From positions 63,178,001 to 63,242,000 of the forward strand of contig OZ024740.1 in the NCBI GenBank assembly GCA_964016885.1: 64,000 nucleotides of DNA. The letters run 5' to 3'. The notes under the pieces are model-generated. The model did no database searches. It worked only from the letters and a program-made list of their open reading frames with translations, and had not been told where the DNA came from. Numbering within the stretch: the stretch's first letter is position 1; each line of letters begins with the position of its first letter. This DNA is from Eledone cirrhosa (taxonomy: Eukaryota). Position numbers and translations under genes: made by a program. Below, piece after piece: positions 34,900 through 47,965 of this stretch.

Positions 34900-36358
34900 T
34901 ATTCCAATACATATCTGTATAGAACTATGCCTGAAGCTAAATTGTAATTCTCTCTCTCTCTCTTTCTCTCTCTCTTTCTCTCTCTCTTTCTCTCTCTCTC
35001 TCTTTCTCTCTCTCTCTCTCTCTCTCTCTCTCTATATATATATATATATATATATATATATATATATATATATATATATATTACTTACAAAAATATTAAT
35101 GTCATGTTTGAGAAAATCCCAAACATGTGCCATATCACCTGTAGCAAAAGCTGAAGGAAAGATTCCAAGGAATAATTCCGAATATTTATTACAAAATATC
35201 GATTGACATATGTATAAATGAACATATAAAAACATTAACATGAGATAATTCGTTAAGAATGTAAGAACGCATTGTTCATTTTTTTTGTAAATTATCTCCT
35301 GCTAATGTTTTCATATATTCATTCATAGATATGCCAATCGCTATTTTATACACACACACACACTCACACACACACATATATATATATATATATATATATA
35401 TATATATATATATATATATATACATATATATATATACATATATATATATATATAGATATATATACATATATACAGTATATATATATATATATATATATAT
35501 ATATATATAACGAAGGAAATGTGGTAAGGAACCAGGTGGACCATAACGCACCAAAGTACTCAATACTTAGGGTAGTAGAGTGGGTAATAGGAACAAGTAA
35601 GACCCCGACGGCTGAGCTCAAGCCGTTTCGACGGCTAATCCAGAATTAGCCGTCGAAACGGCTTGAGCTCAGCCGTCGGGGTCTTACTTGTTCCTATATA
35701 TATATATATATATATATACTGTATATATGTATATATATCTATATATATATATGTATATATATATATGTATAAATATATATATATATATGTATAAATATAT
35801 ATATATATATATATATATATATATATATATATATATATATATATATATATGTGTGTGTGTGTGTGTGTGTGTGTGTGTGTGTGTGAGTGTGTGTGTGTGT
35901 ATAAAATAGCGATTGGGATATCTATGAATGAATATATGAAAACATTAGCAGGAGATAATTTACAAAAAAAACGAACAATGCGTTCTTACATTCTTAACGA
36001 ATTATCTCATGTTAATGTTTTTATATGTTCATTTATACATATGTCAATCGATATTTTGTAATAAATATTCGGAATTATTCCTTGGAATCTTTCCTTCAGC
36101 TTTTGCTACAGGTGATATGGCACATGTTTGGGATTTTCTCAAACATGACATTAATATTTTTGTAAGTAATATATATATATATATATATATATATATATAT
36201 ATATATATATATATATATATATATATATATATATATATATATATATATAGAGAGAGAGAGAGAGAGAGAGAGAGAGAGAGAGAGAGAGAGAGAGAGAGAG
36301 AGAGAGAGAATTACAATTTAGCTTCAGGCATAGTTCTATACAGATATGTATTGGAATT
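34900..36358. repeat. ~1.45-kb imperfect palindrome centred near 35640
   Basis: 34900-34950 pairs with 36310-36358, (CT)n with (AG)n, 35080-35370 with 35880-36170, and 35586-35640 with 35641-35695. Confidence 0.9.
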
Positions 36359-36770
36359 TCGTATTTCAGAAGAAGTACGGTTAGTTTAACATAATCATTT
36401 AGAGAGCCGTAGCTATGCCAAAACAGTAGCGACTAACGCCGTCTAGTGGTGTCCAGCAGAAGTAGGGGCGACAATCGTGGATGCGCATTTCGAACTGAAC
36501 TGGTTCTCATTAGCACGATCCATCCCACTCTTGCAACTGATTGACTTTGAAAACAGGCGAGAATATATGGTTTTCTGGTCTGTGTAAATGAGGTAATTAA
36601 TCTCATTTGCATATATAGCTGTATCACTTATAATAAAATAGAATTACAATTTAGCTTCAGGCATAGTTGTATACACATATGTATTGGAATTCCGTATTTC
36701 AGAAGAAATACTGTATGTTTAAAATAAACATTTAGACAGCCGTAGCTATGCTAAAACACCAGCGACTAAC
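36310..36770 (-). mobile_element. 333-nt tandem HHR unit (family K), inverted relative to the adjacent Naiad fragment
   Basis: ttacaatttagcttcagg at 36311 and 36644. HHR at 36474-36519. Octamer at 36605-36612. Confidence 0.8.
36474..36519 (-). ncRNA. Hammerhead ribozyme (family K), G5A-decayed
   Basis: ATCGTG-CTAATGA-GAAC cagttca GTTC-GAAA-TGCGCA-TC-CACGAT. Confidence 0.8.
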
Positions 36771-36771
36771 A

Positions 36772-37055
36772 GTTTAAAGAACGCTTCTTGAATCATGTCT
36801 ACCTTCAGATACCCGGACAAACAATAGTTCACGAAGCTCGTAAGCTGCGTATGGTCCCTCAAGAACACAGGCGTGGATTACTCCATCCAATGGACAGTTA
36901 TTACTAAATCTAAACCATACGGAAATGGGAATCCGTCTTGTGGGCTGTGCATTGAACAAAGAATCAATATCCTTAGAAGTTTAGGTGTCTAAATTCAAGG
37001 AATACAATTTTTTCACGTTGTTCACACGTCTGAAAACACCTATAACGTAATTACA
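36772..37055 (+). pseudogene. Naiad-type PLE GIY-YIG endonuclease fragment
   Basis: Manual translation: FKERFLNH..TFRYPDKQ*FTKLVSCVWSLKNTGVDYSIQWTVITKSKPYGNGNPSCGLCIEQRINIL..CLNSRNTIFSRCSH. Confidence 0.8.
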
Positions 37056-37715
37056 AAGCTCTAGATTGACTAACATGAACAATCTATAATATTCTGGACT
37101 GAATAGCATGAATAATCTATAATTATCCTGAGTATCAACAGTTGTCTCTCTACATCGATCTATCGTGGGTTTATCTCCCATTTGGGAAGTGACTGTTTCT
37201 GCCCATGCGTATTTGTGCAGTTGTTTTTCCTTTTCCGTACAGCCTCATAGAACTACTCAAAAGTTGTAGAACTACTACCAAAGTCTGGATTGAGTGCTCT
37301 ACTACTACGGATATAACCCACCAGTGTTCTACTATTATGTATGTATGTAAAAAAGTCACACTTGTTCCACGCATCGGTAGGGGTTCTCGTACATGGATAT
37401 AGGGTAGTGGCCGTAATCGAAAACGAGTTGGCAGCCACCATGTATGTATGTATGTATGCTAAAAAGCCACATTCGATCGCAGCGCTGTTAATTGCTATCG
37501 TGTGTGTGTGTATAGATATGTTTATGTGTGCATGTGTGTGTATACATATATATGTATATTATTATTGTTGTTTTTGTCGTTACATTATTATTATTGATGT
37601 TATTATTATTATTATTATTATTATTATTATTGTTTGTTTTTTTTTGTTTTTTTTTCTCGTGCAATGGCCATACTCGATAACGAGGGGGCAGCCATCATGT
37701 ATGTATGTATATATA

Positions 37716-45759: not shown

Positions 45760-46285
45760 ATCGTATATTATTCGATATACAACCTTCATATACACATATG
45801 TATGCTGCTATGTTTGAGAGAACATCCTAATCCTAATTCTCATTCAAGCTGAGCCAGCCTAAAGCTCCGTATGCAAATGAGGCTAATCAGCCTATATACA
45901 TAAGCAAAAAAACTATGTTTTCAGATTATTTGAGTTCCAGTAAGAGGCAAGGAAGGGTTGCGTGACCTTAACAACGGCAAAATAGACAGAAACAGCGCTG
46001 TCGGTTGCTTTCTCTTCTGCTGGAACAAGGAAGATAACGTCAGTCATCGCCTTTAAAAGCTCTCAAATGTTTATTCTAAAAGAACATCGTATATTATTCG
46101 ATATACAACTCTCACATACACATATGTCTACAACTATGTTGGAATGAATACCGTAATCCTAATTCTTATTCAGACTGAGCCGACCTAATGCTCCGTATGC
46201 AAATGAGGGTAATCAGCCCATATACATAAGCGAAAAAACTATATTTGAGTTCCAGGTATGTTGGAGCGAACATCCTAATTCTAAT
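45760..46285 (+). mobile_element. 326-nt tandem unit related to family K, with a decayed U3-A8 HHR at 45964-46006
   Basis: Octamer at 45871 and 46197. GACC-TTAACAA-cggc..gaca-GAAA-CAGCGCTG-TC-GGTT. Confidence 0.65.
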
Positions 46286-46948
46286 ATATATATATATATA
46301 TATATATATATATATATATATAAGTGTGTGTGTGTGTGTGTGTGTGTGTGTGTGTGTGTGTGTGTGTGTGTGTGTGTGTGTGTGTGTGTGTGTGTGTGTG
46401 TGTGTGTGTGTGTGTGTGTACAGAATACGATAAGTGCAACGAATGCTACACCCAAATCACGATTCGACTCCCGACATCTGAATGAAATAACAAGTTACCA
46501 TGAACTCCTTATTGTTTCGGAAACGCATCCTTAACTGCAGACATGAGTCTAACCACCACCATACGGGCCACGTAACGTAATATAGGCACTCTGTGGATTA
46601 AGTGGATTCTGTGGATTCATAAAACAACTGGTACTGTTCTTTAATTATAGACTGCAACGGATCGAGGTCAAATGGCTAATTTGAACCGGCCTCCTAATGT
46701 GTTAATACATTTTGAACTGCTTCAAAATGTATTAACATATTTTGAACTGCTTAACTTCAATGACTGTGCTTGTAAATAACATTATTTTTTTCTTCCACAT
46801 TGACTTTTTACGTTCCACATTATGCGGGGTTTTTGGGGTTTTTTTCCTTTTTATTTTTTATTTTAACTTCTTAAACCTTGTTTGTATATAACATTATTCT
46901 TTCTGCATCTTCTGTTTAACATGTGCGACACCACACTAATACATTTCA

Positions 46949-46990
46949 CTATCATTTGATAATGCATATAAATGCTGAAACCGGTAATAG
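46949..46990 (+). ncRNA. Minimal hammerhead with U3-A8 core (family L)
   Basis: CTatcAT-TTGATAA-tGCAT ataa ATGCt-GAAA-CCGG-TA-ATAG. Confidence 0.65.
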
Positions 46991-47448
46991 ACAATAATTA
47001 AATATATAAATAGATAAATAAATACCATTGTTAAATAATAAATAAATCAACTAATACCTTAACACTTCACACAAAGTAAAACATTTCGTTTTAATCATTT
47101 TCTAACCCAGAAAAAAGAGAGAGAGAAACAAAAAAGAAAAAACATTTTTTTCTTCCTCATAATCGTCTCTTTCTCCCTGTTTTCATATATATATATATAT
47201 ATATATATATATATATATATATATATATATATATATATATATATATATATATATATATATATATATACTTACACATACATATGAACTACTGACCAAATAA
47301 TGTTTGGTATCAATGGGTTAAAGACATCTGTCGAAACAATTAGTGGTGAAGGTGGTGTATATATATATATATATATATATATATATATATATATATATAT
47401 ATATATAATATAATATATATATACACACACACACATATATAAATATAT

Positions 47449-47965
47449 GTCAGTTAAGCCTGACATGCATAGACGGTTGTCCCCCTTCCTTCTGTTGGAC
47501 ATCACCAGAGGGCGTTCGCCCCCCGGTGTTTGCATAGCTACGGCTTCCTAACACCGTATTTCTTTGGAGATACGTAATATTTATACATATTGTATAAAGC
47601 TATACTTGAGGCGAAATCCTATTTCTTTTCTATTATAAGTTGAGCCACCCTATGCAGCTTCATATGCAAATGAGATTAATCACCTCATTTACACAGACGA
47701 GAAAACTATATATTCTCGCCTGTCTTCTAGTCCAGCAGTCGCAAGCGGTGGAAGGGACCGTCCTGACGAAGGCCAGTTAAGCCTGAACTGCATAGACGGT
47801 TGTCCCCCTTGCTTCTGCTAGATGTCACCAGAGGGCGTTAGCCCCCCCCCCCCCCCCCCCCGGTGTTTGCATAGCTACGGCTTTCTAAAACCGTATTTCT
47901 TTGGAGATACGAAATATTTATACATATTGTATAAAGCTATGCTTGAAGCAAAATACTATTTCTTT
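47449..47965 (+). mobile_element. 323-nt tandem HHR unit (family K) between TA tracts
   Basis: cagttaagcctg at 47451 and 47774. Octamer at 47664. Confidence 0.85.
47757..47800 (+). ncRNA. Hammerhead ribozyme (family K)
   Basis: ACCGTC-CTGACGA-AGGC cagttaa GCCT-GAAC-TGCA-TA-GACGGT. The partial copy has GACA, so the consensus is GAAA. Confidence 0.8.

Follow-up and report, generated by a model that had tools for sequence, protein, structure and literature searches.

Hammerhead retrozyme copies of Eledone cirrhosa with a promoter-like cassette resembling host small nuclear RNA promoters

How do short repeats that carry hammerhead ribozymes come to be transcribed? Three such repeats, with units of about 330 nt, stand in a 64,000-nt stretch of the Eledone cirrhosa genome (contig OZ024740.1, positions 63,178,001 to 63,242,000 of the forward strand; hereafter the window). 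An earlier note on this DNA had pointed to an octamer about 100 nt upstream of the ribozyme core and proposed an internal Oct-dependent promoter driving read-through multimers that the hammerhead cuts, after the manner of newt satellite 2, which has an octamer. Accounts of how animal retrozyme circles are transcribed differ: a 2020 review (PMC7761336) assumes promoterless read-through, and a 1994 newt paper is reported to describe a promoter of the small nuclear RNA (snRNA) type. In the present genome the matter can be tested by comparison, since at least eight diverged families are at hand and the snRNA promoters of the host serve as yardstick. On balance, the comparison favours reading the three loci as truncated, core-mutated copies of a high-copy family of retrozymes without long terminal repeats (non-LTR retrozymes), whose promoter-like cassette likely serves them as a promoter of their own, with RNA polymerase II as the probable reader.

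Results

Three partial tandem copies in the window

The loci, here A, B and C, and their features are as follows.

36310..36770, minus strand: locus A, a 5'-truncated retrozyme copy of 1.38 units; its 3' end adjoins (CT)n and then (TA)n
36605..36612, minus strand: octamer ATGCAAAT of locus A, 99 nt upstream of the core
36563..36596, minus strand: proximal-element slot of locus A (TTACC; family form TCACC) and TATA-like CATATAT
36474..36519, minus strand: type I hammerhead of locus A, core changed from G5 to A, predicted cut after 36480, stem III palindrome ATGCGCAT
45729..46285, plus strand: locus B, an old subfamily copy of 1.62 units, ending at (TA)n
45871-45878 and 45887-45891, plus strand: octamer and proximal-element slot (TCAGC) of locus B; offset ranked 1 of 301
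45962..46008, plus strand: type I hammerhead of locus B, G5 to A atop the family's U3/A8 variant, predicted cut after 46002
46197..46204, plus strand: second octamer of locus B, without a downstream hammerhead (deleted)
47449..47965, plus strand: locus C, a copy of the youngest subfamily, 1.59 units, ending at (TA)n
47451-47477, plus strand: 5'-truncated hammerhead remnant that starts locus C
47664..47712, plus strand: promoter-like cassette of locus C, with octamer 47664-47671, TCACC 47680-47684 and TATATA 47707-47712; offset ranked 1 of 301
47737, plus strand: predicted transcription start of locus C at CAGC-A, 57 nt past the slot as in host U1 and U2
47757..47800, plus strand: type I hammerhead of locus C, A15.1 to C, predicted cut after 47794

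Periods by self-BLAST were 333 (A), 325-326 (B) and 323 nt (C). These periods, the three loci themselves, the stem variants, the palindromic stem III loops and the positions of ATGCAAAT at 36605-36612 (minus strand), 45871, 46197 and 47664 agree with the earlier note. Its tandem family is real as to periods, although the window holds only partial tandems (1.38, 1.62 and 1.59 units) with one complete hammerhead per locus. Cores lie at 36513 (minus strand), 45968 and 47763, with octamers 99, 97 and 99 nt upstream; the spacing of 97-99 nt thus stands for the octamers at 36605 (minus strand), 45871 and 47664 but not for that at 46197, which no core follows because an internal deletion in locus B took out the second hammerhead. 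Five octamers occur in the 64-kb window against 6.1 expected, a number not above chance, and the octamer signal is one of fixed position, seen genome-wide, not of count within the window. We refer to subfamilies A, B and C as family K and to D, E, F, F2, G, H and I as related families.

A promoter-like cassette shared by diverged families

Units of these families share an order of elements in which the 12-mer TATGCAAAT(G/T)AG is followed after 8 nt by a YCA(G/C) core (offset +16) and about 26 nt further on by a TATA-like box, with the type I hammerhead 87-100 nt from the octamer. The 12-mer is identical to that of host U6 promoters, where three independent U6 types have it at -76, -77 and -78. 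Across an alignment of families C, B, D, F, G and E, whose pairwise identity is 0.40-0.65, 30 of 435 columns are invariant and TATGCAAAT is the longest invariant run, at 9 nt versus 2 nt for the next. Families D, F and E were first picked via the octamer; G, one F2 copy and one D copy also came from hammerhead-only scans.

A proximal-element matrix trained only on 15 U1, U2 and U5 promoters was used to rank 301 offsets per unit. Offset +16 headed the ranking in C, A, E, F and H; it took second place in B and G, third place in F2 and place 36 in D, and summed over seven families it scored 20 versus a median of -138 (standard deviation 29). Ten further distinct loci gave it first place in eight cases, fifth place in one F2 copy and place 25 in window copy A. 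Proximal-element scores reached 7-15 bits in G, in I and in the H clade. A candidate for the proximal element, which the earlier note proposed to seek by comparison with host snRNA promoters, has its best or near-best site at +16 in eight of nine units, with low scores in K. The distance from core to TATA-like box is 25-27 nt in the units, 26-28 nt in U1, U2 and U5, and 34-36 nt in U6 (our register). From octamer to TATA box the units measure 41-43 nt versus 46-48 nt in U6, and YCA(G/C) at +16 in the units contrasts with a CCT of U6 type at +15 to +18.

The H clade, formed of 310-311-bp arrays and related to K through shared blocks (L147 2245-3175, minus strand; L302 8400-10000; L264, L288 and L300), has GCAA(C/T)CGCT in the octamer position and keeps both the core and the TATA-like box. 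This replacement motif was not found in the snRNA loci examined. Judged by this comparison, the octamer is not an indispensable part of the cassette, since a related clade lacks it; the internal snRNA-like promoter proposed earlier has comparative support at the family level.

By host spacing the predicted start would fall at +71 to +74 from the octamer, mostly at Y-AG and about 58 nt before the cut. The host 3' box was found in none of nine units (at most 3.8 bits), versus 15-23 bits in 11 of 12 snRNA genes scored in-sample, an absence that fits read-through. T runs of at least four occur inside six of the nine units, and polymerase II is favoured because copies include the promoter despite them. 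Another dispersed repeat carries ATGCAAATGAGGT and no hammerhead was seen downstream of it (L013 at about 2570, minus strand; L045 at about 1226; L263 at about 3597); in L045 it is fused directly to U6 sequence.

Host snRNA promoters

Among 20 U6 loci (L031, L032, L033 and L186 hold U6 and U6atac), ATGCAAAT lies at -76 and -77 in two dispersed genes and ATGCTAAT at about -78 in ten array copies, and an insertion that splits the promoter has displaced the octamer in six array copies; of the remaining loci, one has an octamer at -275 and one is without. One of eight U6atac loci has a one-mismatch octamer element at -77. Four U6/U6atac promoter types have TATG(C/G)(A/T)AAT(G/T)AG in common, with a TATA box 46-48 nt on, and the octamer element they share is a POU-type site. 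Twelve weaker dispersed U6 matches and seven of the eight U6atac loci had no promoter and were dropped as likely pseudogenes.

No octamer was found within 330 nt upstream of U1, U2 or U5 (L081-L091, L106-L115 and L151-L168 for U1, U5 and U2), and two U1 copies have a reverse octamer at about -400. Common to these genes are (T/C)CA(G/A) at -55 to -58 and a TATA-like box near -30, with a 3' box further down, so that a TCAGT core at about -57 plus a TATA-like box is the layout of polymerase II snRNA genes here. A distal (T)ACCTCCC at about -260 is common to U1, U2 and two U6 genes. Host U1, U2 and U5 promoters thus lack the vertebrate octamer layout and mark the host as a non-vertebrate. The earlier note took the octamer for a distal element of snRNA genes; in this genome we rejected that role, and the octamer is instead a proximal element of U6 type, because it lies at -76 to -78 in U6 and U6atac and is absent near U1, U2 and U5.

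Hammerheads

All three window cores depart from the consensus, as CTAATGA in A (G5 to A), TTAACAA in B (G5 to A on U3/A8) and GAAC in C (A15.1 to C). With one hammerhead each, and its core mutated, the window copies cannot make monomers or multimers; the cutting of read-through multimers put forward earlier consequently has support at the family level and not in these copies. Rfam called no hammerhead in the window or in the K loci, and its Hammerhead_HH9 model gave a match, below cut-off, in sister family D only. Cores were intact in 23 of 30 C, 15 of 30 A and 11 of 29 B copies analysed, a majority at the family level. A canonical type I hammerhead per unit therefore holds for most of the family and fails in the three window copies. 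Two consecutive intact hammerheads, the mark of a source copy, occur in none of the three window loci and are present at L029 (family K) and in D, F and H arrays.

Of 29 B copies, 23 have the U3/A8 exchange, a natural and active covariation of the hammerhead core (PMC3088659). Stem I of A copies opens with C-G in 12, G-C in nine and another pair in nine of 30. Subfamily C has a stem III of one base pair with a palindromic tetraloop, the dimer type, and in axolotl the one-pair type performs best as a dimer (PMC7229834). Circular folds gave z scores of -4.4 to -12.4 in six of seven units and -0.5 in the window B copy (30 shuffles each).

Family size and sister families

One unit of each window locus was searched against the 3.0-Gb genome, in which four contigs exceed 370 Mb, giving 2,667 candidates for C, 2,605 for A and 660 for B, 40 of which were scored in each case. 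Identities to the other scored copies were 91-95% (C), 81-88% (A, 39 best) and 72-86% (B). The loci analysed were the top 30, 30 and 29 for C, A and B, a choice biased towards full units. Across families the units are 310-484 nt long, non-coding and of GC content 0.35-0.45, with thousands of dispersed candidates; K copies examined span 0.5-2.7 units. The three window loci and their relatives are almost certainly non-LTR retrozymes, a class already known.

An exact pattern joining the U6 element to a hammerhead core 72-95 nt on matched 12,610 + 12,046 = 24,656 times in its TAG form (control 0) and 1,019 + 1,082 = 2,101 times in its GAG form (control 1); the pattern ignores stems, and these counts reflect copy number. 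Families were read from the first 100 matches listed per form, and among these were the further families D (466-bp arrays), F (about 480 bp), E, G and I. Young, near-identical arrays of D (466 bp, about 30 units) and F (456-502 bp) lie at G000 C1:5738332-5751968 (L215-L223) and L208-L214, with intact hammerheads and exact octamers. They are the best candidates for active source loci.

In a 580-kb sample of evenly spaced genome pieces, a hammerhead scan that missed one H array, and so is not exhaustive, gave 21 matches, only two of which had the octamer, both of compact type. About 12 others were long-stem-II hammerheads without it, and the octamer as a feature of all hammerheads here was rejected. 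H-type and octamer-type loci had similar frequencies in the sample (four vs three). The long-stem-II kind, with an AT-rich stem I (TTTTAT CTGATGA ... TA ATAAAA), is the commonest type in the sample (L259, L263, L274, L275, L277, L280, L282, L284, L299, L303 and L308). A pattern scan of metagenomes gave 60 matches, none of which folds as a hammerhead, and these were taken as chance.

Mobility and Penelope-like elements

Fixed 3' ends at microsatellites, 5' truncation, partial tandems and 5' inversions are hallmarks of Penelope-like elements (PLEs; PMC8557442), and a preprint of 2026 makes the case that retrozymes derive from PLEs and are non-autonomous (bioRxiv 10.64898/2026.07.22.740005). Among C copies the 3' end falls within +290 to +307 in 27 of 30, a microsatellite comes next in 22 of 30 and the 5' end is inverted in 20 of 30; the same test came out looser in A (18 and 12 of 30) and B (14 and 5 of 29). 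C copies end at a T-rich site, and the end sites of A and B are without a T run. A young PLE family of the genome is represented in the window by two features.

26550-28142, plus strand: PLE open reading frame (ORF) with reverse transcriptase (RT) and GIY-YIG domains; young family with 24,479 candidates and many intact 775-aa ORFs
29633, plus strand: hammerhead of the PLE pseudo-LTR, with the U3/A8 core variant

Its 3' end lies at (TA)n, and at L249 a second ORF stands upstream. The terminal repeat of this one PLE family is without an octamer, and its similarity to the units is unconvincing, the best match being 31 nt in an AC-rich stretch (E 0.006). Relatives of the PLE include bivalve-associated records and a mollusc-led cluster.

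Related remnants lie near 14096 (minus strand) and 15404 (plus strand). A second RT remnant of PLE type at 33637-34880 (minus strand) adjoins a 1.46-kb inverted repeat (34901-36357), whose arms hold a 48-nt inverted duplicate of the locus A 3' end with its microsatellites. At 51510-51533 (minus strand) there is a minimal hammerhead, such as PLE terminal repeats contain, whose core is intact and whose stem III loop has two bases; an RT remnant adjoins it at 51553-52271 (minus strand).

Other elements in the window

The window also contains a Helitron-type Pif1 helicase region (16385-20683, minus strand), a remnant of a long interspersed element-type RT with C2H2 zinc fingers (37317-39081, plus strand) and the remnant of another non-LTR element (2225-3282, minus strand). 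A short repeat with CTGATGA and a downstream GAAA-CTAATTAG palindrome occurs at 12424 (minus strand), 12935 (minus strand) and 13322 (plus strand), two copies in tandem and one inverted, and is possibly another degenerate hammerhead family.

Discussion

A functional internal promoter in the source arrays is probable on the comparison of families; granted such a promoter, polymerase II would probably be its reader, and the reading as a whole is likely. Several observations weigh against it. Proximal-element scores in K are weak, at 2.6-7.2 bits versus 8.8-28.8 bits for left-out true promoters; offset +16 ranks only 36 of 301 in D, 25 of 301 in window copy A and 5 of 301 in one F2 copy; and B is without a TATA box. 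The invariance of the octamer is inflated because D, F and E were first picked through it, the families share ancestry, and H was anchored by eye. Within subfamilies the octamer is better kept than the rest, as the earlier note would have it, by a modest margin (octamer/rest 0.983/0.973 in C, 0.971/0.915 in A and 0.917/0.830 in B), and windows conserved as well as the octamer number 74 of 246, 31 of 292 and 26 of 282, respectively; so modest a margin within K is what neutral decay of most copies would give. In C, A, D, F and F2 the octamer pairs as the 5' arm of a local hairpin, which an octamer change at one F2 locus makes perfect. The octamer-to-TATA spacing is unlike that of U6, independent type 3 promoters available for comparison number four, and no PLE terminal repeat matching the unit was found in the one PLE family. 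Read cover of the unit at L007 in four runs of one study, even and DNA-like in three and patchy in the fourth, was used neither for nor against expression; in the DNA-like runs the unit has a summed depth near 100,000 and the flank one of about 10, figures that do not give a copy number.

A first rival reading, which we think unlikely, takes the cassette for a type 3 promoter of the U6 kind: RNA polymerase III would transcribe the units and would now and then pass through T runs. The 12-mer is found in U6 and U6atac and not in U1, U2 or U5 promoters, the units have a TATA-like box, which in vertebrates selects polymerase III (PMC1761439), and C copies end at a T-rich site. However, host U1, U2 and U5 too have a TATA-like box, at about -30, and the +16 core with its 25-27-nt spacing to the TATA-like box fits these genes (26-28 nt) and not U6 (34-36 nt). 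T runs lie inside most units, the ends of A and B are without one, and copies carry the upstream promoter, which requires read-through.

It is likewise improbable that the units have no promoter of their own, are transcribed by read-through from host genes and keep the octamer as an RNA hairpin arm or a protein-binding motif of the circle. Metazoan retrozymes seem not to harbour promoters according to the 2020 review (PMC7761336), the octamer pairs locally in five of eight units through 6-7 of its eight bases, the F2 change perfects the hairpin, and proximal-element scores are low. Yet the 5' arm is invariant while its partner is free to vary, and only 1, 3 and 5 of the eight bases pair in E, B and G. 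The 12-mer also occurs in untranscribed DNA upstream of U6, and units with another motif in place of the octamer still have the +16 core and the TATA-like box, their spacing unchanged. Very unlikely, finally, is a fossil snRNA promoter, captured once by the common ancestor and now unused, in families that spread by array amplification and passive co-mobilisation: a single capture would account for the layout of related families, the match has decayed in D and K, and long near-identical arrays of 466-bp units exist, but nine bases are still invariant and the spacing is still fixed in units that have otherwise drifted to 40-65% identity, and the youngest and most abundant families retain the exact octamer.

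If the cassette is an internal polymerase II promoter, the life cycle may be pictured as follows. SNAPc and a POU factor would bind the cassette, and in arrays of at least two units polymerase II would start about 58 nt before the cleavage site, just upstream of a hammerhead whose cut would remove the capped leader. With no 3' box to stop it, transcription would continue across the promoter of the next unit to a second hammerhead, and the released monomer, with the promoter enclosed, would be circularised by a host ligase, as is described for retrozyme monomers (PMC7229834). Copying into (TA)n targets might fall to a Penelope-like RT/GIY-YIG enzyme that starts on the RNA at a fixed AU-rich site, yielding copies of 1-2.7 units that are 5'-truncated and often 5'-inverted. 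A new source copy would need about 1.9 units to hold the promoter and two hammerheads, for which reason the window copies and most dispersed copies would be dead ends.

The units resemble metazoan non-LTR retrozymes (PMC7229834) in being non-coding, of low GC content and about 300 bp long, with one type I hammerhead each, dispersed and tandem copies, highly self-paired predicted circles and co-occurrence with PLEs. The accessible text of that paper has no promoter analysis, 'promoter' standing there for T7 only, whereas a conserved snRNA-type cassette is seen here. With PLEs (PMC8557442) they share 5' truncation, partial tandems, inverted 5' pieces and microsatellite targets; the young PLE of this genome likewise has a U3/A8 hammerhead and a 3' end at (TA)n, and differs in encoding a protein, the units being non-coding. 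No mention of 'promoter' was found in the accessible text of the retrozyme preprint (bioRxiv 10.64898/2026.07.22.740005). The hammerhead repeats of Schistosoma, which are like short interspersed elements (PMC6765202, PMC2220036), also combine promoter and hammerhead in each tandem unit, and their single copies, as here, cannot propagate; a polymerase III promoter is reported for them, and the cassette here resembles upstream snRNA elements and is likely read by polymerase II.

SNAPc-dependent promoters (PMC3499247, PMC1761439) likewise comprise a POU octamer, a proximal element and a TATA-like box, and POU2F1 binds cooperatively with SNAPc (PMC3499247). There the octamer sits in a distal enhancer; here it is 8 nt from the proximal core, and an octamer of U6 type is joined to a core of U1/U2 type inside the very repeat to be transcribed, unlike in those promoters. 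Newt and axolotl satellite 2 (PMC2114352) resembles the units in its length of about 330 bp and, as in C, its one-pair stem III with a palindromic loop, and for the newt a promoter of snRNA type read by polymerase II was reported in 1994 (cited in PMC2220036; PMC6765202). The present case differs in its non-vertebrate host and its own promoter elements, the two having been compared by description and not by sequence. By this analogy the retrozymes here likely work as newt satellite 2 does. In the open-licence literature, no report of an snRNA-type cassette in invertebrate retrozymes was found.

From the comparison come a base-precise predicted start, a predicted polymerase and a motif swap made by nature. 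The snRNA promoter grammar of this lineage is defined as well, including U6 elements that would be of use for guide-RNA expression. More tentatively, animal non-LTR retrozymes may be self-transcribing parasites of the snRNA (SNAPc) machinery and not promoterless passengers; part of that idea, held just as loosely, is a modular promoter in each circle whose activator slot might be swapped between the POU octamer and GCAACCGCT, with the hammerhead removing the capped leader and the lack of a 3' box letting polymerase II run on. If so, a design that a mollusc-like genome has in common with newts would either be ancestral or have evolved repeatedly, and this genome would contain more than 26,000 dispersed cassettes as potential POU/SNAPc sites.

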